DNA of 55,061 nucleotides from a virus (IMGVR_UViG_3300030109_000603:1-55061), one strand, 5' to 3'. Counted from the first letter of the stretch, positions 6,587 through 16,204 are shown. The notes: generated by a model from the sequence alone, not told the origin. A program made the numbers and translations.

Positions 6587-6701
6587 TCTTTCCTTTGTGT
6601 TTTTCTTTTCGTTTAGGTACAGGTTTTTTCTTATCAGGTATTACCTGTTGTTTATACTTAGGTTGCCTAAGATCTTTAGCCATTGGGTTAGGTTTTTTCA
6701 T
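6570..6701 (-). CDS. Small basic protein (MKKPNPMAKDLRQPKYKQQVIPDKKK...)
   Basis: Manual translation; AGGAG upstream; fills gap downstream of integrase. Confidence 0.55.
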   Translation of the reverse strand: MKKPNPMAKDLRQPKYKQQVIPDKKKPVPKRKEKHKGKSDERT

Positions 6702-7785
6702 TACCCTTTCTCCTATCTAATGCAGACTTAGCTGCAGCATAAGTATGCTTATGGTATGGATTAAGTGACGAGATATTCTGATGTCCTGTCACTGACATAA
6801 TAGCTAGATGATCTACCTCTGAGTCAATCATTTCCACAATGGCACTCTTTCGCAAGTCACCAACACGTAAGTCATCAGGTAGTTCAGCAGCAGCTTTAAC
6901 TTGGTTAGCGAGTACCGATACCTGACCAATGTTTAACGGCCTGTAAGCACCATCAGATGGCCTCTGGTGGGGAACTACATAGTCTTGGAACCCCCAATCT
7001 TTCTCCTGCTGAGTGAGCATCTCCATTATCTCGTCAGAGATGGGTAACTCTACCTCTGCCCCACGTTTAGTTTGTTTTATCTTAACCTTTTTATCTTTAA
7101 AGTTTATCGAAGACCACTTCAATAATCTTATATCAGTAGGTCTTTGCGCCCACTCATAGCACATCAATACAATCAGCCCTACATTACGCCAATCAAAATC
7201 AGTAAATGCAGTATCAAGAAACTTTTCTACCTGTTCTTGTGTCCATGTTGTATTCCTTGTTTCATGCTTTCTCTTACGAACTTTAGACATAGGGTTATAC
7301 ATAATTAAATCAATAGATATACAAAAATTTATTAGTAATGAAAATATTCTTGAACACTGATTCCCTTTTGACACACTCACACTTTCACACCATTCTTCGT
7401 AGGCTTCTGTGCAGTGTAAGGAAGTAAGATCTTTAATCTTAATATTACCTAGCTTCTTACTGCCTATGTTTGTGTTAGCAATAGCATCCATAGTATTATC
7501 ATAAGTTCTCTGTGAGTTGTATGCCAACTGTCTAAAGTGTGTAGTGGTCACATAGTATTTGTATATCTGCAATATCGTAGAGTTAGAGCCAATGTTACCT
7601 GCGACAATATCCCCACGTCTAAAGGCTTCTACCTTTTCTACTAGTCTAGGTATTTCATACCTAGCAGCCCTACCATCACGAAAGGTTTGTCTTTGTACAA
7701 CACCAGCATCAATGGCATCTTGTGGTGGCAAGAACTTCCATGCAGGGCCAGTCTTTAAGACTACCTTCTTAGTATATTTATACAT
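6688..7785 (-). CDS. int: Tyrosine recombinase / integrase
   Basis: Catalytic R (WAQRPTDI), K (QTKRG), DLRKSA (HxxR variant), TGH, Tyr in NPYH; 365 aa. Confidence 0.9.
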   Translation of the reverse strand: MYKYTKKVVLKTGPAWKFLPPQDAIDAGVVQRQTFRDGRAARYEIPRLVEKVEAFRRGDIVAGNIGSNSTILQIYKYYVTTTHFRQLAYNSQRTYDNTMDAIANTNIGSKKLGNIKIKDLTSLHCTEAYEEWCESVSVSKGNQCSRIFSLLINFCISIDLIMYNPMSKVRKRKHETRNTTWTQEQVEKFLDTAFTDFDWRNVGLIVLMCYEWAQRPTDIRLLKWSSINFKDKKVKIKQTKRGAEVELPISDEIMEMLTQQEKDWGFQDYVVPHQRPSDGAYRPLNIGQVSVLANQVKAAAELPDDLRVGDLRKSAIVEMIDSEVDHLAIMSVTGHQNISSLNPYHKHTYAAAKSALDRRKGNEKT

Positions 7786-7852: not shown

Positions 7853-8053
7853 TTATACTTTGAAGCCATCATCTTTCCAAGACATAACCTCACTGATCTT
7901 CTCAATGTCACATAAACTTTTTATACATTCGTATATTTTTACATGACAATCTTGATAAGATACTTTGTTAGCAAAGTCTACGCTATCCGAAAGTAGATCC
8001 TGATAGGTAGTCGCTACTGTTTCATCCTTATGGGTTACTTCTACATAATACAT
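7853..8053 (-). CDS. Hypothetical early protein
   Basis: ORF in early operon. Confidence 0.6.
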   Translation of the reverse strand: MYYVEVTHKDETVATTYQDLLSDSVDFANKVSYQDCHVKIYECIKSLCDIEKISEVMSWKDDGFKV

Positions 8054-8057
8054 AACA

Positions 8058-8318
8058 CTAACGTTTACCCCCTTGTATCACAATTAGTTGTGGACTTTTT
8101 GGTTTTGAAGTTAATACGCTTCTCAATTCTTCGTACCTTTCTAAGTTGTAGTCTCGCATTTTTATTACAGGCTCAGTATCCATGATGTCAAAGACTGCAT
8201 TAGGAAATGCTTCTTCTAGTTTTTCACAGATAAGACTAGCACTTTCAATAGTAGAGCACCGCATAACAAGACACTCTTCTAGTTCATCTACATACATTTC
8301 TACTACGTAGTAATCCAT
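8058..8318 (-). CDS. Hypothetical early protein
   Basis: ORF with RBS; C-terminal LIVIQGGK. Confidence 0.65.
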   Translation of the reverse strand: MDYYVVEMYVDELEECLVMRCSTIESASLICEKLEEAFPNAVFDIMDTEPVIKMRDYNLERYEELRSVLTSKPKSPQLIVIQGGKR

Positions 8319-8440
8319 CTGTTACCTTTCTCTATTGCCTTTGCATATTCAATAGCAACGTTTTTATTAGTGCATATGATGACGATTTTACCATCGTCAC
8401 CATATACAATCCACTTAGATTTTCTCTGCACTAAGTACAT
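8303..8440 (-). CDS. Small hypothetical protein (MYLVQRKSKWIVYGDDGKIVII...)
   Basis: Manual translation; fills gap between two ORFs. Confidence 0.5.
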   Translation of the reverse strand: MYLVQRKSKWIVYGDDGKIVIICTNKNVAIEYAKAIEKGNRWITT

Positions 8441-8659
8441 CTACCCTGCAAAGTGATATAGCTTACGCCCATAAGCATGTTCAACATACAGGCTACGCTT
8501 ACCAAGGTGGTAGGCATTCATAGTACCTAAAGGTTCATACTTAAACCAGCCACGAGATTTGTGGTTACGCTTACGGTATAATCCTTTTACACCTAAGATG
8601 TTGAAACGAAACCCTTTTGTTCCGTCATTGAGTGGTTTAGTTGCTACTAGTACAAACAT
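8441..8659 (-). CDS. Hypothetical early protein
   Basis: AGGAG RBS, basic 72 aa ORF. Confidence 0.65.
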   Translation of the reverse strand: MFVLVATKPLNDGTKGFRFNILGVKGLYRKRNHKSRGWFKYEPLGTMNAYHLGKRSLYVEHAYGRKLYHFAG

Positions 8660-8681
8660 GTTTTTCTCCTTTGTGTTTGTA

Positions 8682-8963
8682 TTAAGAATAATAAGGGTGA
8701 TTGCAGAGGTGAGGAAATGCCATTCTTAACCTACTTTCTGCTCTAGATATACTTCTAGCATCATCTATCGTAATGTCAAACATTTCGTTAAGATTGCCTT
8801 CCGCTTCTTGTATTGTTTCATAGGCAAATTTAATTGCAGTTATTTGTTCTTCTGTCAAGTTACTGCACTTTTCTTCAAGCTCTATCCTACGTGCTTCTCG
8901 TTTGTCTGCCCACTCTTGATGGTTCTTTGCGATTTCTTCTGGTGTCATTGTAGTTCCTTTCAT
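8682..8963 (-). CDS. Hypothetical early protein
   Basis: ORF starting immediately after palindrome copy 1. Confidence 0.7.
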   Translation of the reverse strand: MKGTTMTPEEIAKNHQEWADKREARRIELEEKCSNLTEEQITAIKFAYETIQEAEGNLNEMFDITIDDARSISRAESRLRMAFPHLCNHPYYS

Positions 8964-8980
8964 TCTCGGAAATTCCGTGA
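8964..8980. promoter_or_regulatory. 17-bp palindrome copy 1 (TCTCGGAAATTCCGTGA)
   Basis: Exactly fills the gap between stop 8981 and start 8963. Confidence 0.85.
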
Positions 8981-9820
8981 TTAAGCTGCTAGTAAAAAGC
9001 GATCATCGCTAACCCATTTAGATACCTCCTGTTCTCTACCCCACATAGAGGTAGCTTGTGTGTCATTACCTGTATTACGCAGATTAAAACCATTACGATT
9101 GTCTGCATAAGATGCATAGTTAGTAAAGGCAGAGTACAAAGCCCACTTGTTTTCACCACGAGTAAATGCTTCTGAACGATATAGCTGATACATCTTCTTA
9201 GCCTTACGTTCTGATGGTATCATTGCTTCTAGCAATGCCTCTACATCTACACCTTTGAGGCTAGTCTGCGCCCATGTTTTCATTTTGATAGCTTGCTCAT
9301 AGAAGTCAGACCGTAGGTTAGACAGTTCATCTATAAATGAACTGAGTGAGAAGTTAGATGTATTCTTCCTGCGGATCTTATCATGTTCACCACTGATGCA
9401 CCCATTGGTGCAGAAGCCATCAATAGCACCAAAGAATACTTGGTTACTACATGACCCATCAATACCATGTAATGATATGATACGGTTCTTTACCTCAGTC
9501 TGATGTCGGTCAGTTTCTATAACTGATTTCATACTAGGTAATGTGATGTCGAGCATAGCCCAAGCACCACCACGAGCAGTGCGAAAGTTAAACTGTGCAT
9601 CATGCATGTCACCATCTTGTAACTCCTGAGTCGCAGTGTCTACGACATTACGAAAGAAATCACCATGATTAGCACAAGTAAAGTCCTTGCCAACAATACC
9701 AAGGTATTCACCTGTGTTGGCATTGATTACATACTTCTTGTCTTTGAATTTAGTTTCCTCGAACTCTACCTCAAAGTCCAAGTGCTCTGGTACGAATGAT
9801 GTTGTTGTATCAAAAGGCAT
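8981..9820 (-). CDS. DUF932/DUF945-family protein
   Basis: LGIVGKDF, SLHGIDGS, FCTNG, NKWALYSAFTNY pattern typical of the family. Confidence 0.75.
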   Translation of the reverse strand: MPFDTTTSFVPEHLDFEVEFEETKFKDKKYVINANTGEYLGIVGKDFTCANHGDFFRNVVDTATQELQDGDMHDAQFNFRTARGGAWAMLDITLPSMKSVIETDRHQTEVKNRIISLHGIDGSCSNQVFFGAIDGFCTNGCISGEHDKIRRKNTSNFSLSSFIDELSNLRSDFYEQAIKMKTWAQTSLKGVDVEALLEAMIPSERKAKKMYQLYRSEAFTRGENKWALYSAFTNYASYADNRNGFNLRNTGNDTQATSMWGREQEVSKWVSDDRFLLAA

Positions 9821-9831
9821 TTTGTTTCTCC

Positions 9832-10530
9832 TTAATGCTCAGATAAGTGTACGATTTGTGTACGGTTGATAGTCTTTTGTGCAAAGCAACCTGCCTTGCA
9901 GTCCTTGCAGTGACCCTTGAGATCCTTGTGGGTCTTAGGGCATAGGAACATTCTTGTTCCATAGGCAGGATCAGATGTCAAGTTATCATCACCATAGAAC
10001 ATAATATTCCAATCATCATCAATCAACATTTTCCATTCAGCTTTGCTGTTGGATGGGTCGAGTGATGCATTAATGGCACAGTTAGGTAGAGACATAAGCT
10101 CTTTCTCAATCAAAGCTTTGAGGCGTGGGTTACGCCATGCTCTGGTAGGAATCCACCATGTGATGTCAGGATTCAGTAAGCACATAGTCTTAACACGGTA
10201 TACATCTACTATATCTTTGAAGGCTTCACCTCTGGTCATGTGACGAACACGACTAGTATCATACCGTTTACGACTAAAGTATTGAGTGAAGTCAGAATTA
10301 GACTTGTTTAGTTTCTGCCAGATAGCCTCGCATCTGTCATCACGTTTAGCCATGTTAGGGTATATCCTATATAACTTAACGTTATAACAAGTTTCATCGC
10401 AGTAATCTGTTCTGTGGTCACAAGAACCATCGTGATTTTCAGTCTCGTTAATTGGCCTAGCAGATGCAGCCATGCCTATATCTGGATTATATTTAAGTAG
10501 ATCATTTAGTTCTTGAGTTGTTAAGGTCAT
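9832..10530 (-). CDS. Gp88-like Cys-rich protein (possible Fe-S / radical-SAM-like fold)
   Basis: C-x5-C-x3-CY, RVRHMTRGE, WWIPTR, C-terminal CP...CKDCKAGC. Confidence 0.6.
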   Translation of the reverse strand: MTLTTQELNDLLKYNPDIGMAASARPINETENHDGSCDHRTDYCDETCYNVKLYRIYPNMAKRDDRCEAIWQKLNKSNSDFTQYFSRKRYDTSRVRHMTRGEAFKDIVDVYRVKTMCLLNPDITWWIPTRAWRNPRLKALIEKELMSLPNCAINASLDPSNSKAEWKMLIDDDWNIMFYGDDNLTSDPAYGTRMFLCPKTHKDLKGHCKDCKAGCFAQKTINRTQIVHLSEH

Positions 10531-10547
10531 TCTCGGAATCTCCGTGA
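10531..10547. promoter_or_regulatory. 17-bp palindrome copy 2 (TCTCGGAATCTCCGTGA)
   Basis: Abuts ATG at 10530. Confidence 0.85.
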
Positions 10548-10560
10548 TTAGATGTTTCGT

Positions 10561-10965
10561 TTAAGTTCTGAATACCTTTATGACAGGTTTATTTTGTTTG
10601 TCAAGGTATAGATAAGCTACCTCGGCATGATAGATCGGCTCATCATGCTCATCTACAAATGTGTTTGCATGATATGGGTTATACCTGACACGCTCAAGCC
10701 TGTCTATGTCAGGGTCATGTGAGTAGTCAGGATCTTGAAACCACAGGTCGGCATCCACCTCAATGCTTTGAGGTCTAACAAACGCATGTACATTCTTGAC
10801 CCTTTCATCTTGAGTCTTTGCCCACCCTGCAGGTTGCACCGCAAACACAGGCTTGTGTGCTATGATACTATTAGTATGCCATTGAACCTTGCCGTTTCTT
10901 TTCCTTACAGAAAAGACATGCTTGTGTAGGTTATAATATATCTCGGTTTTCATTTGATTCTCCAT
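10561..10965 (-). CDS. Conserved phage hypothetical protein
   Basis: YYNLHK...KNVHAFV...YNPY motifs. Confidence 0.7.
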   Translation of the reverse strand: MENQMKTEIYYNLHKHVFSVRKRNGKVQWHTNSIIAHKPVFAVQPAGWAKTQDERVKNVHAFVRPQSIEVDADLWFQDPDYSHDPDIDRLERVRYNPYHANTFVDEHDEPIYHAEVAYLYLDKQNKPVIKVFRT

Positions 10966-10982
10966 TCTCGGAATTTCCGTGA
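10966..10982. promoter_or_regulatory. 17-bp palindrome copy 3 (TCTCGGAATTTCCGTGA)
   Basis: Exactly fills the gap between stop 10983 and start 10965. Confidence 0.85.
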
Positions 10983-11381
10983 TTACAATTTGCTGCCTAG
11001 TACTAGCTTTCGTGATAGCTCATGCCAGCCAGTAGGCATACATAGATACGCCTTGTTCTGCTGTAGATGTACAATTATATTACCTACAGATAGGCTAGTA
11101 TCACCCTTAGCAAGGGTGGTAACCTTAGCCTTACCATAGCCATTACCTGCATCAAAGACAGCTTCCAATGGGTCAACAGATTCAGATAGCACACCCAGAT
11201 GCAGGAACTTGGTTGGATAATACATGTTATGAAACAGGGCATCATTGACACTCTGTTCTGCTGATTTCTCATTGAGAAGCCTCAGATCAAAAGCAATCCT
11301 TGCTACCTCTGATTGAGGGTTCTCATTGATTATGTCATAGACTTCTGGTCTGAACTGATAAACGAGGTATGATCTGGACAT
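10983..11381 (-). CDS. Hypothetical protein (weak YodL-like SLSVGNII motif)
   Basis: AGGAG RBS, own upstream promoter. Confidence 0.65.
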   Translation of the reverse strand: MSRSYLVYQFRPEVYDIINENPQSEVARIAFDLRLLNEKSAEQSVNDALFHNMYYPTKFLHLGVLSESVDPLEAVFDAGNGYGKAKVTTLAKGDTSLSVGNIIVHLQQNKAYLCMPTGWHELSRKLVLGSKL

Positions 11382-11410
11382 TGGCTTAACTCCTTGTTGC
11401 CATGAATTTC

Positions 11411-11443
11411 CTTAGTTCTGTCACAATATGAAACAGATGTCAA
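11411..11443 (-). promoter_or_regulatory. Promoter TTGACA-N17-CAGAACTAAG
   Basis: Perfect -35 upstream of gene starting at 11381. Confidence 0.55.
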
Positions 11444-11525
11444 GGGTTTTGTTTTGAATAGCATCTGTCGATGCCATATAGACCGCCAATATTTGTCGGC
11501 ACGTAGGGCAGACCTGTCACGTTTG

Positions 11526-11657
11526 TTAATGTGCATCTTCATCCTCCATATTTAAAAACATTTCTGAGCACACTTCGCATAGATCACCACACTCATACCC
11601 CCATTCTGTATAATACAGAACTTCTTCTTCGTCACCACAGTTCTCACACTTAGGCAT
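11526..11657 (-). CDS. Small Zn-finger protein (MPKCENC...CEVC...)
   Basis: Manual translation; two CxxC pairs; GAGG RBS. Confidence 0.55.
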   Translation of the reverse strand: MPKCENCGDEEEVLYYTEWGYECGDLCEVCSEMFLNMEDEDAH

Positions 11658-11660
11658 AGC

Positions 11661-11894
11661 TTAATCCTCTTCACCAAACATATCATTCCATTCACGAGGT
11701 GTAATGCCTGACATCAAGAACTCACGCTGATTATCATTTAGATCAGGCATGACATCCTGAATCAGTTTACCTGATTCAATCCAGTATTCTATCTTACCTT
11801 GAGTCGTAGGTAATAGCATAGAGTTTACCCTACCTGATACCGTAGACTTCTTGTGAACAAGAACCTTGTTCTCTGCAATGTGTTCTATATGCAT
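11661..11894 (-). CDS. Conserved phage hypothetical protein
   Basis: LIQDVMPDL...REFLMSGITPREW motif; AGGAG RBS. Confidence 0.75.
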   Translation of the reverse strand: MHIEHIAENKVLVHKKSTVSGRVNSMLLPTTQGKIEYWIESGKLIQDVMPDLNDNQREFLMSGITPREWNDMFGEED

Positions 11895-11896
11895 AG

Positions 11897-12157
11897 TTAT
11901 TCTCCTTTCGCATATGCTTTTGCTTTTACCAAAGCAATTAATAATTTGTCGGCATCCAGATACCGCACCACATCATCATAGTCTTTATCTAATTCAATAT
12001 TGGAATAATACCAATAGCTAGTATCAACAAAATTGTCATCATGTAGAAGTGCTACTTCTACTTTATTTTTATCTAGCCATTCTTGTGCTATGGATAGCCT
12101 GTACCCATCGCCTAGATTTATAGATACGTTACTCATTTTATTCTCCTTTTCTTTCAC
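11897..12157 (-). CDS. Hypothetical early protein (probable start 12136)
   Basis: ORF; AGGAG RBS before MSNVSI. Confidence 0.65.
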   Translation of the reverse strand: MKEKENKMSNVSINLGDGYRLSIAQEWLDKNKVEVALLHDDNFVDTSYWYYSNIELDKDYDDVVRYLDADKLLIALVKAKAYAKGE

Positions 12158-12323
12158 GAAATTCTACTTCGTAGCCACGCTTTTCCCATCTATTTTTTGC
12201 ATTCTTCATAGCTTGCCCAGCTATCTCACAGTCGCCATCATATGGCCCACTATCAAAGATAACTTCACCATTTTTATTCAACACAAGTATAGCATAATTC
12301 ATTTTATTCTCCATTTCATTCAC
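12138..12323 (-). CDS. Hypothetical early protein (probable start 12302)
   Basis: GGAG RBS before MNYAIL. Confidence 0.6.
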   Translation of the reverse strand: MNEMENKMNYAILVLNKNGEVIFDSGPYDGDCEIAGQAMKNAKNRWEKRGYEVEFRERKGE

Positions 12324-12336
12324 GGATTTTCCGTGA
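12320..12336. promoter_or_regulatory. 17-bp palindrome copy 4 (TCACGGATTTTCCGTGA)
   Basis: At junction of two small ORFs; contains the TGA stop of the upstream ORF. Confidence 0.85.
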
Positions 12337-12448
12337 TTAGTTTTGCATTATTAGGGAAACGTTTTAGTATCTTCGATACTTGCCGCATATCACGACAGGT
12401 AAGATAAGAAAACATAAACCCTTCGTCATCATAGAAACATACACGCAT
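12320..12448 (-). CDS. Small hypothetical protein (MRVCFYDDEGF..., 42 aa)
   Basis: Manual translation; GGAGG RBS. Confidence 0.55.
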   Translation of the reverse strand: MRVCFYDDEGFMFSYLTCRDMRQVSKILKRFPNNAKLITENP

Positions 12449-12677
12449 GATTACCTCCAATCAAAAGCTAAAACAGAAAGTAATACTACTAAAGGTAATA
12501 ATGATAGTAATATCACAGGACTGATAGTAGTATAAGCTACTATTAATAATATACTTGTAGTAGATACAAGTATTAACAACCAAGCGAAAAATAATACAAA
12601 ATGCACGGCATGTACTCCTATTTTTGATAGACTTTTGTCGGCATGTAATCGAGTGATCACATACAAAAAGAAAAAAT

Positions 12678-12700
12678 CAATCACGGAATTTCCGTGATTG
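12678..12700. promoter_or_regulatory. Palindrome copy 5, extended to 23 bp (CAATCACGGAATTTCCGTGATTG)
   Basis: Just downstream of a terminator on the minus strand. Confidence 0.85.
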
Positions 12701-12724
12701 ACTATACTTCAAAGAAGTATAAAC

Positions 12725-12755
12725 AAAAAAAAGCTCCCCGAAGGGAGCTTCTTTT
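12725..12755 (-). terminator. Rho-independent terminator with cUUCGg loop
   Basis: Minus strand reads AAGCTCCC-TTCG-GGGAGCTT followed by a T run. Confidence 0.85.
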
Positions 12756-12939
12756 ATATTTCACCAAGAGCAATCAAACAATCTATAAAGCCTTCAGCTT
12801 TATGTTTGTTAACCCAATGGTCATTCTCCCTTTTAAGGAGAACTGGGAAATCATGTTTGTCGTTTATTAAACGACCTTGATAGCAAAAACAGTATTCAGT
12901 ATTTGAATACTCCAAGATTTCAACTCCACAATATTCCAT
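12754..12939 (-). CDS. Hypothetical early protein
   Basis: GGAG RBS; bounded by palindrome 6 and a terminator. Confidence 0.65.
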   Translation of the reverse strand: MEYCGVEILEYSNTEYCFCYQGRLINDKHDFPVLLKRENDHWVNKHKAEGFIDCLIALGEI

Positions 12940-12965
12940 ATTTTAAATCTCCGATTTAAAGTTAT

Positions 12966-12982
12966 TCTCGGAATTTCCGAGA
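12966..12982. promoter_or_regulatory. 17-bp palindrome copy 6 (TCTCGGAATTTCCGAGA)
   Basis: Intergenic; perfect arms. Confidence 0.85.
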
Positions 12983-12987
12983 TTGAA

Positions 12988-13007
12988 TAGCCCCCCGAAG
13001 GGGGCTA
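12988..13007 (-). terminator. GC hairpin with cUUCGg loop after first early gene
   Basis: TAGCCCCC-TTCG-GGGGGCTA on the minus strand; weak U tail. Confidence 0.7.
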
Positions 13008-13013
13008 AATGAT

Positions 13014-13628
13014 TTACTTGAAGAGCTTTGCAAGCTCTTTTGCGAATGTGGATCTGCTAAAGCCTCCGGCTTCAAGAGCATCATAAACTTGCTCTGCAAG
13101 TTCCTTTTCGTTTTTCGCAACCACTGTCTCAAAGACAGTGTTCTTGACTACCTCTTCAGCCTTATTAGGCTGTTCAGAAGCCTTCGGCTTGCCCTTCGAG
13201 GTGTTCCCTGCCGAAGAAGCTTTAGGCTTCTTACGAAGCTCAGGATGAGCTTCCAGAACAATCTTCCGAATGGAAGATACTCCCAAGCTGTTAAGCTTGC
13301 CAGCTTTGTTTAACCTCTGGACTTTAGTCCAGTGAGTGGCGATCCACTTGGCATCATACTTATCAGCAGAGCTGATGTTTTCGTTGCTGAGATCAGTTCC
13401 ACTGATAAATGAGCCGTAGGCTTTCTTGTCACCACCAAACAGATTTTCAATCTGAAGCAGGATGTTTCCAAGCTCTCTGTAGAGAGCCAACTGATCCTCT
13501 TGGATCAGGTAAAGCTTGTCATAACAAGCTACGGCATGACTAATACCATTAGTCAGAGTGTAGGACTTACGTCCTAGCTTGAAGGTTGAGTCCAAAGTTA
13601 CCGTAGGTAAAGCTGCTGATTTTGCCAT
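13014..13628 (-). CDS. First early gene; possible DNA-binding protein (weak DUF3102-like)
   Basis: RELGNILLQI...GDKKAYGSFI helical segment; basic linker; own promoter and hairpin. Confidence 0.7.
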   Translation of the reverse strand: MAKSAALPTVTLDSTFKLGRKSYTLTNGISHAVACYDKLYLIQEDQLALYRELGNILLQIENLFGGDKKAYGSFISGTDLSNENISSADKYDAKWIATHWTKVQRLNKAGKLNSLGVSSIRKIVLEAHPELRKKPKASSAGNTSKGKPKASEQPNKAEEVVKNTVFETVVAKNEKELAEQVYDALEAGGFSRSTFAKELAKLFK

Positions 13629-13688
13629 TTTAATTCTCCGAATTAAGTTAAGGTTGCTGCTTCACCGATTTGCCGATGAAGCCCTTAC

Positions 13689-13718
13689 AAAGTAACACTG
13701 ATTCGTTTGGATTGTCAA
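13689..13718 (-). promoter_or_regulatory. Early promoter TTGACA-N18-TACTTT (extended -10)
   Basis: Upstream of gene starting at 13628. Confidence 0.6.
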
Positions 13719-14023
13719 CCCCTTTAGGGGGTTGGTCATTCTCGGAATTTCCGAGGTTAACTTTCCCTTTAGGGAAAACTTTCTGATCTTTTGGTGCGCA
13801 TTATGCGCAAGGAAAAGCTAGGGGTATACCTCTGCGCCTTGACCCTTTAGGGTTGACCATAGCTTAACCCCTTGGGGTTACCTCCAAAAATTCCCCTTAA
13901 AATACTTGTATTTTAGAGAACAAGAATCCCTTATTGTTTTAAAAAACAATAGATAACAATGCTTTAGCATTGTAGGTAGCTCAAAATCCTACGGATTCAG
14001 ACACGCATAGCCTCTTCAGAGGC
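13716..14023. repeat. Array of short inverted repeats in the non-coding divergence region
   Basis: About 10 mini-hairpins, several built on CCC-TT(TA)-GGG. Confidence 0.8.
13740..13756. promoter_or_regulatory. 17-bp palindrome copy 7 (TCTCGGAATTTCCGAGG)
   Basis: ~20 bp upstream of the early -35. Confidence 0.8.
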
Positions 14024-14332
14024 CGGGGGCATGGGCCACTGGGGGGATACCCGTATGCGTATACACTCAATGACAGAGGGGGGTATTTTTTAAGTGTTAA
14101 CTACAATAAATATAGGCCCATATATAGTATTCTCTATAGAAAACAGGGGGTTAACCCTGCAGTTGGTACGAAAGGTAGACATACTTTTAGAGTATTGTAA
14201 AGATATGTTACAGTGTTTGTAACAATTTGTGATTAACTGGACTTATACTTTGTAGTAACTGGCTATATGTAGAGTATTAATAATGTTAATACTAATTATG
14301 AATATTATTCATATTAATTCTTACTTTAAGTG

Positions 14333-14360
14333 TTGACAAATATTAAAAGTGCGGTATAAT
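14333..14360 (+). promoter_or_regulatory. Promoter TTGACA-N16-TATAAT
   Basis: Perfect hexamers, 16-bp spacer. Confidence 0.7.
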
Positions 14361-14489
14361 ATACTTAAAGGATATACTTAGAGTATGTCTTAAATACTAA
14401 ATACTATTAATAATTATAATTAATAATTAGTATTTAAAGAAATCCTTTAAGGATAGTGTGAATTTTTTTACTGTCGTAGGTAAAAAGTA

Positions 14490-14530: not shown

Positions 14531-14776
14531 GTGCCAAAGATGTATTCTGATGATAATGTGCTAGTAGAGTTCTACAAAGCTCTAGCTGATGAAGACGAAG
14601 GTAGGCTACGTAGAGTACACATCCCCAGATCTGATGTATTCTACGTAAGAGAAAAAATATTTCAAGACACTGGCGTTAAGTATTCCCTAGATAGAGTAGA
14701 AAGAGCTATGTATCTAGAGGGTCATCTTAGTGCCAGTGATGTATTTCAACCTAATGTAAAAAGGGAATGGGAATGA
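14531..14776 (+). CDS. Hypothetical protein
   Basis: First gene of the late arm; GTG start. Confidence 0.65.
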   Translation: MPKMYSDDNVLVEFYKALADEDEGRLRRVHIPRSDVFYVREKIFQDTGVKYSLDRVERAMYLEGHLSASDVFQPNVKREWE

Positions 14777-14979: not shown

Positions 14980-15368
14980 TACAGGCATTAATAGGTCCAG
15001 TATCAAGTTTAGTAGGAACGTGGTTAAATGGAAAAGTTGAAACTAAAGCTGCAGAAACTAAAGCAAAAGTTGCCAAAGCTGAAGCTGAAGCGCAAATTAT
15101 GCTGTCTCGTGCAACCAGTGAGGCAGATTGGGAAAAAATTATGGCGCAAGGTAGTCAGTCTTCGTGGAAAGATGAATGGCTAACTATTTTGTTTTCTATC
15201 CCATTGATTCTAGTTTTCACTGGCAATTGGGGTAGAGAGATTGTGGCAAATGGTTTTGTCGCATTAGAGACAATGCCTGAGTGGTATCAGTATACACTAG
15301 GCGTAATTGTAGCAGCAAGTTTTGGTGTACGCTCTGCTACCAGATTTTTTAATGGGAAAAATAAATAA
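14976..15368 (+). CDS. Holin (3TM GTA-holin-like)
   Basis: SWKDEW followed by TM helices, ASFGVRS, basic C-terminus; precedes endolysin. Confidence 0.75.
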   Translation: MIQALIGPVSSLVGTWLNGKVETKAAETKAKVAKAEAEAQIMLSRATSEADWEKIMAQGSQSSWKDEWLTILFSIPLILVFTGNWGREIVANGFVALETMPEWYQYTLGVIVAASFGVRSATRFFNGKNK

Positions 15369-15820
15369 TGTTTAAACTAAGCAGACGTAGCCTTGACAGG
15401 CTTGAAGGTGTAGATGAACGCATGGTAACAGCAGTTAAACATGCTATTACAGCAACAAATACTGATTTTGGAGTTATTCAAGGTATGCGAACTTTAGAGC
15501 AACAGAAAGAACTGGTTGCAAAAGGCGCAAGTCAAACCATGAAGAGTAAGCACTTAGAAGGACTAGCAGTTGACCTGATGGCTTATATTAATGGTCGTGG
15601 CTCTTGGGAGCTAAACCTGTACGATGATCTAGCTGATGCTATGAAAGAAGGTGCTAACTTTGCTGGGTGTAAAATCCGCTGGGGTGCAGCATGGCACATA
15701 GATAATATTGGTGAGTATGAAGGTACTATGGAAGATGCTATGAATGAGTACATTGATTTACGTAGGTCACAAGGACGTAGACCATTTATTGATGGACCTC
15801 ATTTTGAACTAATGGTTTGA
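15368..15820 (+). CDS. Endolysin, M15 family peptidase
   Basis: GMRT, SKHLEGLAVD, WG, DGPHFEL zinc-binding motifs. Confidence 0.88.
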   Translation: MFKLSRRSLDRLEGVDERMVTAVKHAITATNTDFGVIQGMRTLEQQKELVAKGASQTMKSKHLEGLAVDLMAYINGRGSWELNLYDDLADAMKEGANFAGCKIRWGAAWHIDNIGEYEGTMEDAMNEYIDLRRSQGRRPFIDGPHFELMV

Positions 15821-15910: not shown

Positions 15911-16204
15911 ATGTCTATACCTGAACGGGTCAAAAATAAGATGAAGGAAGAGGGGCTAAAGGGTGTTAATAAACCTAAGCGTACTCCTAACCATCCTAAG
16001 AAATCACACTGTGTTATGGCAAAAGAAGGTGATACATATAAGTTTATCCGATTTGGTCAACAGGGTGTAAAAGGCGCAGGGAAAAATCCTACATCTAAAA
16101 AAGATAAGGCTCGTAAGAAAAGTTATTATGCAAGGCATGATGCACAAGACTCTAAGCCAAGTAAATTAAGTGCTCGTTATTGGAGCCACAAAGTAAAATG
16201 GTAA
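15911..16204 (+). CDS. Conserved basic phage protein
   Basis: IRFGQQG...YYARH...SARYWSHKVKW. Confidence 0.75.
   Translation: MSIPERVKNKMKEEGLKGVNKPKRTPNHPKKSHCVMAKEGDTYKFIRFGQQGVKGAGKNPTSKKDKARKKSYYARHDAQDSKPSKLSARYWSHKVKW

Follow-up and report, generated by a model that had tools for sequence, protein, structure and literature searches.

What is the role of a short palindrome that recurs seven times among the early genes of a phage? The question is raised by the virus record IMGVR_UViG_3300030109_000603, which was analysed here at its full length of 55,061 bp (hereafter the window), and for which a sequence-only reading had proposed that 17-bp dyads act as an operator array, as RNA hairpins or as recombination sites delimiting gene cassettes. 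The window is a complete virus record with 38% G+C, and PHROG and Pfam scans of the genome gave a podophage layout. The leftward arm, on the minus strand, runs from 13628 to 1 and then from 55061 to 50577; it contains small open reading frames (ORFs) without assigned function, followed by genes for a tyrosine integrase, ThyX, a primase/helicase, a DNA polymerase, a Cas4-like nuclease, ribonucleotide reductase and MazG. The rightward arm (14531-50551) contains the lysis, packaging and structural genes. The coat protein shares 82% identity with the one of Roseobacter phage CRP-9 and 72% with the one of Puniceispirillum phage HMO-2011, which makes the phage, by sequence comparison, an HMO-2011-type podophage. 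RCA (Roseobacter clade-affiliated) roseobacters are the hosts of its nearest cultured relatives, and the cultured group nearest to the window phage includes an integrating phage, according to PMC9038755.

On the evidence below the dyad is a real, family-wide and undescribed regulatory word with a named candidate partner; the mechanism by which it may act is what we infer. The best explanation, which is tentative and has not quite an even chance, is that the dyads are an operator at the promoter of gene 1 and roadblock-like sites within the early operon, for a dimeric binder that is most likely the gene-1 product. Gene 1 (13014-13628, minus strand) is the first leftward gene and encodes an orphan protein of 204 aa, the candidate binder.

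Six copies match TCWCGGA-N3-TCCGWGA (TCWCGGANNNTCCGWGA) exactly, at 8964, 10531, 10966, 12320, 12681 and 12966, and the copy at 13740 has one mismatch (TCTCGGAATTTCCGAGG). When up to two mismatches were allowed, these seven were still the only matches in the 55,061 bp, all within 8964-13756 (4.8 kb). Shuffled sequences gave 0.00 exact matches and 0.10 matches at up to two mismatches, and none of 100 shuffles reached the observed count. Because the window is a complete virus record, the motif is confined genome-wide to the seven early copies, which upholds the earlier statement that the dyad was not noticed elsewhere. Among 17 TCWCGGA half-sites, 13 are inside the seven copies, and the four lone ones compare with 4.06 expected by chance. 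The 17-bp core was found as described, but the conserved element is longer, about 23 bp, and reaches a perfect 25-bp palindrome at one of the copies.

Six copies are located at gene junctions and one is promoter-proximal. The usual order at a junction is stop codon, dyad, 3-13 nt, Shine-Dalgarno sequence (GGAGA-like), 5-8 nt and ATG. Copy 1 (13740-13756), the one with a mismatch, reads CCTCGGAAATTCCGAGA on the minus strand, has CCCTTTAGGG hairpins on its flanks and stands 19 nt upstream of a minus-strand TTGACA (13720-13715), in agreement with the earlier placement of one dyad near the first early -35. This TTGACA is the -35-like element of the presumed leftward gene-1 promoter; it is a consensus match only, is kept as ggggTTGACAat in most close relatives and is the only promoter-like site for gene 1. 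Copy 2 (12966-12982), a perfect dyad (TCTCGGAAATTCCGAGA), precedes the ATG of gene 2 (12754-12939) by 26 nt. Six nucleotides before it is a G+C-rich hairpin following gene 1 (12989-13006, minus strand, agcccccttcggggggct), which is kept in relatives and has no T run. Copy 3 (12677-12701, core 12681-12697) is the 25-bp palindrome, continues into a T run and has an RNA fold of -17.4 kcal/mol; a canonical intrinsic terminator after gene 2, recognised in the sequence (12726-12755, minus strand), comes before it. Two copies had been said to follow hairpins, and the terminator before the 12681 copy and the G+C hairpin before the 12966 copy bear this out; hairpins precede copies 1-3 only.

Copy 4 (12320-12336) overlaps the last codons and the TGA of ORF 12320-12448, so that one copy does contain a stop codon as noted before, and the Shine-Dalgarno sequence of the next gene then follows. 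Copy 5 (10966-10982) is between the TAA of 10983-11381 and an L5-gp82-like gene (start at 10965 or 10953). Copy 6 (10531-10547) abuts the ATG (10530) of a GP88-like gene and is, again as noted before, a copy touching a start codon; it is the sole copy abutting a conserved start, and its central GAT creates a GGAG. Copy 7 (8964-8980) abuts the TAA of a DUF932 gene (8981-9820), and the true start of the next gene is at 8948. An arrangement of TAA, motif and ATG that fills the whole gap had been reported for two copies; it is the literal sequence at 8964 and 10966, but the ATG at 8964 is not a start codon. Comparison with relatives indicated the same for the ATG touching the 12320 copy: in relatives, such an ATG is not in the reading frame of the conserved protein, or is replaced by ATA, or opens a frame of six codons.

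The motif is present in relatives. A scan of IMG/VR with the motif returned 30 contigs, of which 19 are relatives of the window and 11 are unrelated contigs with a single match. The 19 relatives are 71-90% identical in nucleotides over the same region, and 14 of them have 3-8 copies at matching places. A search with gene 1 returned 54 loci (31-92% identity), all with gene 1 by construction, and these carry the same type of array with a conserved consensus, where absence from relatives would have told against the sequence-only reading. The half-sites are lineage-specific (TCATGGA, TGTCGGA, TG(A/T)CGGA, (C/T)(C/T)TCGGA, TGACGGA), and CGGA-N3-TCCG is the core of these variants. The array starts about 75-135 nt upstream of gene 1 in the related loci. 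A copy within 260 nt upstream of gene 1 is present in 51 of the 52 loci with enough flank, and one within 260 nt past its stop codon in 38 of 49. In five near-complete relatives, 35 of 36 core copies are in a single stretch of 3.5-5.6 kb after gene 1.

Some clades also have copies in coding sequence at conserved places, namely in the gene-1 linker and in the orthologue of 8058-8318. The linker dyads (L094-L100, L119, L121 and L122) and those of the 8058-8318 orthologue (L099, L102, L113 and L122) are in one reading frame; the matching places in the window have no dyad. These in-gene dyads encode TDGPS (gene-1 linker) or SDRP-like peptides.

Gene 1 and the motif are inherited together. In a search made with the motif only, gene 1 is present in 11 of the 14 contigs with at least three copies, and the other three contigs end before its place. 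Gene 1 had no match in 50,697 cultured phage records. Ten cultured HMO-2011-type phages all lack an array; the core is absent altogether from nine, and CRP-207 has a single copy, in the structural region. In the early region of CRP-9 no comparable repeated palindrome was found, the best being GTTTAA-N2-TTAAAC with three copies. The cultured phages without the motif do carry other neighbours of the array, that is 14531-14776 (divergent), 15911-16204, and the proteins of 1171 and 1131 aa of the virion region. On these sequence comparisons no other gene of the neighbourhood follows the motif through the family as gene 1 does. The earlier suggestion of the 13014-13628 product as binder gains from this link, although no DNA-binding family could be assigned to it.

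The gene-1 family is unannotated and comprised 136 relatives in one search and 71 clusters at 50% identity in another. In the predicted structure, a helical N-terminal domain (residues 1-130, predicted local distance difference test (pLDDT) 85) is followed by a disordered, basic, Lys/Pro-rich linker with a conserved AGN[TV]SKGK and by a two-helix C-terminal domain. Prediction with two chains gave a symmetric homodimer with an ipSAE of 0.68 (0.64-0.69 in three runs), against 0.00 for the best of three controls. The runs agree in at least 72% of contacts, which involve both domains, and the partner pLDDT is at least 70. Of 30 proteins with a structure solved as a pair, 20 reached the mark used, as did 1 of 23 with a single-chain structure; the model supports a homodimer, short of proof. 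For the N-terminal domain, a VIA comparison placed DNA-binding domains among the 50 best of 48,161 chains, namely those of KorB (1r71, Z 5.4, rmsd (root mean square deviation) 3.7, 88 aligned; 8qa8, Z 4.1), Spo0J (1vz0, Z 4.6) and SopB (3mkw, Z 4.1). This modelled fold likeness is a weak lead.

Two assignments for the gene-1 protein were discarded. DUF3102 (Atlas lead 0.92, 42% of members) was not borne out by Pfam. A C-terminal ribbon-helix-helix was suggested by a VFETVV strand, a G-F-S turn and two faint matches to Mnt (E 0.16 and 0.019); it was dropped because the VFETVV strand is absent in distant clades and is identical in L078, whose half-site differs. As a separate observation, four relatives (L080, L082, L083 and L101) have another gene-1 N-terminal domain (38-39% identity) joined to a similar C-terminal part, with the break at 13211-13215, in the linker beside AGN[TV]SKGK.

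The symmetry of the dyad points to the kind of molecule that is recognised. The 167 distinct instances from the window and the 54 loci gave the consensus TAnTSWCGGA-N3-TCCGWSAnTA. Base identity is two-fold well beyond the core: A at -10 in 133 and T at +10 in 130 instances, T at -8 in 129 and A at +8 in 133, so that positions 10 and 11 are T-A on both sides and position 8 is T on the left and A on the right. Position 9 is non-paired in 117 of 167 instances, and position 6 is A.A or T.T in 65 of 167. The conserved thing is thus not a continuous stem, because these positions are often unpaired while base identity remains symmetric. At position 6 all four A/T combinations occur at orthologous sites, and the choice of A or T is independent between the arms. 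The bases at position 1 are complementary in 99 of 167 instances against 57 expected, though they would be unable to pair in a 3-nt loop, and clade G+C confounds this count. G-U pairs on the sense against the other strand number 20 and 24, 8 and 12, 28 and 13, and 22 and 63 at four positions, with no excess on the sense strand. The RNA folds of the copies at 8964, 10531 and 10966 (-4.0 to -4.6 kcal/mol, z -0.2 to -0.3) are no better than those of shuffles.

A double-stranded DNA site read by a symmetric dimer is therefore favoured over an RNA hairpin, on sequence grounds, because of the symmetry across unpaired positions, the independent arms, the absence of G-U bias and the weak folds of three of the seven copies. 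The polarity noted in the sequence-only reading is seen at positions 9 and 12 and, in the window clade, in the TAA...ATG context, and it is limited to these flanks; the core is palindromic.

In the proposed mechanism, the gene-1 dimer would bind the copies as double-stranded DNA sites. Copy 1 would be the operator of the gene-1 promoter; in several other clades its centre is near -41 and covers the -35 position. In at least three clades other than that of the window, exactly 20 nt separate the end of the dyad from a conserved CATAAT, which gives this centre, and in the clade of the window the centre of copy 1 is about 63 nt upstream of the presumed transcription start site. The other copies would act between the stop codon and the ribosome-binding site of successive early genes, three of the copies standing just past terminator-like hairpins. 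As the protein accumulates, bound dimers would hinder or stop RNA polymerase, and the early leftward operon would be shut down stepwise, or silenced in a lysogen. Binding would accordingly repress or block rather than activate. Among the three options first offered, the operator array fits best, given the symmetry, the independent arms, the promoter copy and a co-inherited orphan modelled as a homodimer, but that gene 1 binds DNA is something that we infer.

Several points weigh against this explanation. Some come from the protein. The gene-1 family had no match in PHROGs or in PDB by sequence and profile, and Pfam assigned no family to whole gene 1, to 28 relatives or to C-terminal pieces; among 40 remote relatives it matched two repetitive proteins and gave two sub-threshold matches to unrelated families only. 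Foldseek returned nothing at E <= 0.001 for the full model or for the N-terminal model, and all VIA scores of gene 1 are below Z 8, the stated noise level of that comparison. Gene-1 similarity does not simply predict the half-site: N-terminal domains only 38-39% identical still go with TCWCGGA, and L078 (N-terminal 61%, C-terminal 80% identity) has TCATGGA in all three copies. The link between gene 1 and the motif may also be shared ancestry alone. No gene-1 prophage was found in 185,579 species genomes, where the single match was on a contig of a metagenome-assembled genome (MAG), and a lysogeny repressor is for this reason not favoured.

Other points come from the sites themselves. L090 and L091 have a 4-nt centre in all copies seen (three and two; GTCGGA-CTGA/CAGA-TCCGAC), while their sister L085, with a nearly identical gene-1 C-terminal tail, has a 3-nt centre in all five copies; a hairpin loop fits such a change more easily than a rigid dimer does. 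The polar flanks (A/C at both -9 and +9, and TAA...ATG in the window clade) are unexplained by a symmetric binder, and a stem, too, would give arm changes of the kind seen between clades. Moreover, no sigma-70-like promoter for the downstream genes is evident after the terminator at 12755-12726, so the sites are perhaps needed for transcription instead of acting against it; none is seen at the junction copies either.

The single gene-1 match in the species genomes (L130, 86% identity) is on a GTDB contig of 4,151 bp from a MAG labelled Patescibacteria, and is most likely a phage contig binned by mistake.

The first alternative, which we regard as unlikely, is that the dyads are recombination sites or cassette boundaries, at which exchangeable units of motif, Shine-Dalgarno sequence and ORF are moved by the integrase, by the gene-1 dimer or by homologous recombination. 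The tyrosine integrase (6688-7785, minus strand, Pfam PF00589) is where the sequence-only reading had placed it, about 1.2 kb on: it starts 1,179 nt past the last copy and has the same orientation as the array. Units adjoining copies have indeed been gained and lost. Four relatives have an extra copy with a small ORF inserted at the 9832 junction, two have an insert directly past the 10531 copy, and the 58-aa gene 12138-12314 is missing in nine. Of the 17 contig joints in one DNA run, 7 have an end no more than 25 nt from a copy, where the share of sequence predicts about 15%, and one of these skips gene 1 from copy 1 to copy 2; however, the contigs with the joints belong to other strains, their likeness to the window is 85%, and the short sides of the joints measure 21-43 nt. 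Changes particular to a lineage, such as TCATGGA in L078 or the 4-nt centre in L090 and L091, are found in every copy of a genome, a pattern of concerted evolution; against its use as evidence for recombination, the many stoperator sites of mycobacteriophages reportedly change together with their binder too. Other clades have a copy in the gene-1 linker, where the N-terminal domain has been swapped in the window clade (13211-13215).

Against these observations, gene order (g1...g9, g10, g11...int) is broadly kept across clades. Among close relatives, some 24 homology breaks were counted from 8000 to 13750; about 5 of these are within 25 nt of a copy, and the others fall at junctions without a copy (8318-8326/8441, 11524/11664, 11897-11908, 12158-12162) or inside genes; the share of breaks at copies is no higher than the share of junctions with a copy (6 of about 19). 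Of the breakpoints that the sequence-only reading asked about, a minority falls on the motif. A direct repeat of 25 nt, which begins within the right arm of the motif and continues across the ribosome site, bounds the 58-aa gene; the far boundary of this gene has a degenerate right half of the motif plus a Shine-Dalgarno sequence (12136-12162, minus strand), where CGTGAAWGAAAWGGAGAATAAAATG is repeated. Because this detailed boundary is a direct repeat that includes the ribosome site, it points to homologous rather than site-specific exchange, and we read the gain and loss of motif and ORF units as ordinary homologous exchange at short repeats, comparable to that at the promoter(early) stem-loop elements (PeSLs) of T4-like phages. 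That the repeated sites and ribosome-site sequences serve as short homologies for this turnover, as a secondary effect, is borne out in part.

The site itself is unlike that of an integron. Integron attC sites are 57-141 nt long, have paired R/L boxes and are recognised as folded single strands with extrahelical bases; the IntI integrase has an extra domain and is encoded beside attI, divergently from the array, and cassettes vary freely in content and order. Like an integron, the array has ORFs of one direction bounded by imperfect palindromes with a tyrosine recombinase nearby; unlike it, the dyad has 17-25 bp and a 3-nt (rarely 4-nt) centre, gene order is kept and the integrase is downstream in the same orientation. 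A 3-bp centre with arms of 7-10 bp resembles neither the known cores of tyrosine recombinases nor attC. The integron-like cassettes proposed earlier are weakly supported at most, since motif and ORF units do come and go, but with gene order kept and breaks as frequent at junctions without a copy. A more specific form, to which only a small chance is given, is that dyad and gene-1 dimer make up a phage gene-cassette system, in which units of dyad, Shine-Dalgarno sequence and ORF are captured, deleted or swapped at the dyad, even at in-gene domain borders. Two dyads would then be brought into synapsis by the gene-1 dimer, with strand exchange left to the integrase or a host enzyme.

Somewhat less probable than recombination sites in general is an RNA element, that is a hairpin between stop codon and ribosome site that controls translation, processing or stability, perhaps through an RNA-binding protein. 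The junction copies are transcribed one way, 3-26 nt before a Shine-Dalgarno sequence, and the four copies that differ from shuffles fold well (-9.2 to -17.4 kcal/mol). Changes between clades keep the arms complementary (C.G to G.C at position 7, C.G to T.A at position 5), and the centre of 3 or 4 nt would suit a loop. RNA-library contigs from two studies, out of expression data consisting of 21 runs of assembled contigs, cover parts of the region at 85-95% likeness and may contain DNA; at the copies at 10966, 12320 and 13740 the contigs bridge the dyad and do not end there, within the limit that contigs cannot show transcript ends. The symmetry set out above is the main obstacle: the would-be stem contains A.A or U.U at position 6 and non-pairs at position 9, conserved symmetric positions flank unpaired ones, base identity is conserved two-fold beyond what pairing needs, sense G-U pairs are not in excess, and three of the seven folds equal shuffles. 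In addition, copy 1 is upstream of the promoter-like site, and no Rfam family matched the whole window at the gathering score. The hairpin option of the sequence-only reading is accordingly disfavoured.

A promoter-type element, at which transcription of early units starts through a phage-modified host polymerase or an unrecognised phage polymerase, has a slim chance, about that of the gene-cassette system. The proposal includes hairpin promoters like those of coliphage N4, and a version in which gene 1 is an activator or a sigma-like adaptor of the host polymerase. The order of terminator, dyad, ribosome site and gene recurs in the window and in distant clades, the lack of an evident sigma-70-like promoter past the terminator at 12755-12726 would be explained, and in several clades copy 1 is at class-II activator distance (centre about -41) from the conserved CATAAT. 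At the junction copies, however, the start codon is 12-30 nt from the dyad, and class-II geometry would therefore put the start of transcription inside the gene. Promoter-like sites in the dyad region number 24 against 27.1 expected. Early promoters of N4 are hairpins with a short stem and a 3-nt loop, and the 7-bp stem and 3-nt loop upstream of early genes, past terminators, recall them; unlike in N4, no virion RNA polymerase was detected and stem mismatches, which oppose an extruded hairpin, are common. PHROGs and Pfam gave no RNA polymerase, PDB sequence searches of the proteins of 1171, 1131 and 1581 aa were empty, and the first two have homologues in cultured phages without the motif. Some copies, moreover, are within coding sequence. 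A virion RNA polymerase among the three largest proteins, a candidate that was considered and rejected by Pfam and PDB sequence, could be present as a very divergent enzyme.

The least probable proposal is that the dyads are sites for host proteins, either decoys or hijacked regulator sites on the first-expressed DNA with clade variants reflecting different hosts, which would suit a CGGA-N3-TCCG core that is constant while gene 1 falls to 31% identity and half-sites that do not simply follow gene 1, but 596 billion bases of bacterial and archaeal genomes gave at least 120 loci where simple arithmetic expects about 280 by chance, the matches listed are single scattered sites only with no genome having clustered copies, and cultured relatives on related hosts are without sites.

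For an operator and roadblock array bound by gene 1, the closest known logic is the operator/stoperator system of cluster A mycobacteriophages. In phage L5 and its cluster, stoperators are described as asymmetric, strictly oriented 13-mers bound by a monomer with two helix-turn-helix (HTH)-type domains; there are more than twenty, spread over the whole genome, host RNA polymerase is used, and action on both initiation and elongation was proposed (PMC9283540). As there, a short word recurs many times, both at a promoter and in the narrow gaps between the genes of an operon, and the window encodes L5 gp82-like and gp88-like early proteins. In contrast to what that source describes, the site of the window is symmetric and about 23 bp long, has seven copies in 5 kb, and its candidate binder is an orphan modelled as a dimer. 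The early proteins with mycobacteriophage-named Pfam families are GP88 (PF17338, 9832-10530) and L5 gp82 (PF25735, 10561-10965), and the DUF932 protein (8981-9820) is the third Pfam match of the early region.

The PeSLs combine a strong sigma-70-like promoter with a terminator (PMC2839356, PMC4122927). The dyads resemble PeSLs in being short conserved elements between small early ORFs without assigned function, preceded by stem-loops. Indels and replacements between relatives are described at PeSLs, as are mini-circles that arise when adjacent elements exchange; the dyad differs in that it is not sigma-70-like, breaks are not concentrated at it and hairpins precede copies 1-3 only.

For a dimer acting on palindromes, the closest analogue is possibly multi-operator control by KorB. 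The KorB operators (OB) of IncP plasmids and the centromere sites of ParB/SopB are scattered palindromes, and the dimer that binds them has a C-terminal dimerisation domain on a flexible linker. In the window, too, copies of a palindrome are distributed over kilobases of a mobile element, some near a promoter and others elsewhere, and the N-terminal fold likeness (Z 4.1-5.4, below the noise level) is in the same direction; the 204-aa gene-1 protein, however, has no Pfam match to a ParB/Srx CTPase domain, and no partition ATPase is present in the genome. Operators of lambdoid repressors are 17-bp dyads clustered in threes at two promoters. The dyad is similar in its length of about 17 bp and its two-fold symmetry, in the spacing of one helical turn between the middles of the half-sites and in its A/T-rich centre, but it occurs as single sites along an operon, at junctions and even inside genes, and the control region has just one. 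Pfam gave no HTH family for any early ORF.

The element had been called undescribed, and this stands for the literature on HMO-2011-type phages, in which no description of it was found, supplements excluded. In the main comparative paper on this group the words promoter, palindrome, inverted repeat and RNA polymerase are all absent, with the same exclusion (PMC9038755).

The control region around and beyond copy 1 has further features. The palindrome CCCTTTAGGG is present in three exact copies around copy 1 (13720-13729, 13765-13774 and 13843-13852), with CCCCTTGGGG near 13866. Two of these copies adjoin mirror-image GGGTTGAC(A/C) boxes (13711-13721 and 13850-13860), as if they marked divergent -35 elements, and the order hairpin-dyad-hairpin around copy 1 is kept in relatives. 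Positions 13960-14110 form a G+C-rich island within a 900-bp A+T-rich control region; its minus strand has an RNA fold of -40 kcal/mol (z -2.2) without Rfam match. RNA-library contigs from two runs extend over 13590-14422 and 13120-14058, with a depth of about 13, the highest seen. The island may be a non-coding RNA. At 14333-14360 there is a perfect consensus sigma-70 promoter (TTGACA-16-TATAAT) directed toward the rightward arm and surrounded by A+T-rich direct and inverted repeats (14260-14440). The rightward arm opens with small membrane proteins and an endolysin (15368-15820), and the packaging genes are not first.

The HMO-2011-type phages count among the most abundant viruses of the sea. 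In a large branch of this group that is uncultured, a conserved regulatory word with exact places and a single candidate partner of an unannotated family are now defined, and the regulation of the branch becomes testable without an isolate, with a synthetic site and protein produced by expression. Should gene 1 bind the dyad, a new DNA-binding family would be added, together with a second, symmetric form of the operator-plus-roadblock logic that has so far been described in mycobacteriophages. Should the dyads be exchange points instead, they would offer an explanation for the turnover of early ORFan genes; and if the cassette reading were true, these abundant marine phages would possess an integron-like engine for early-gene turnover, with a minimal site of 23 bp.

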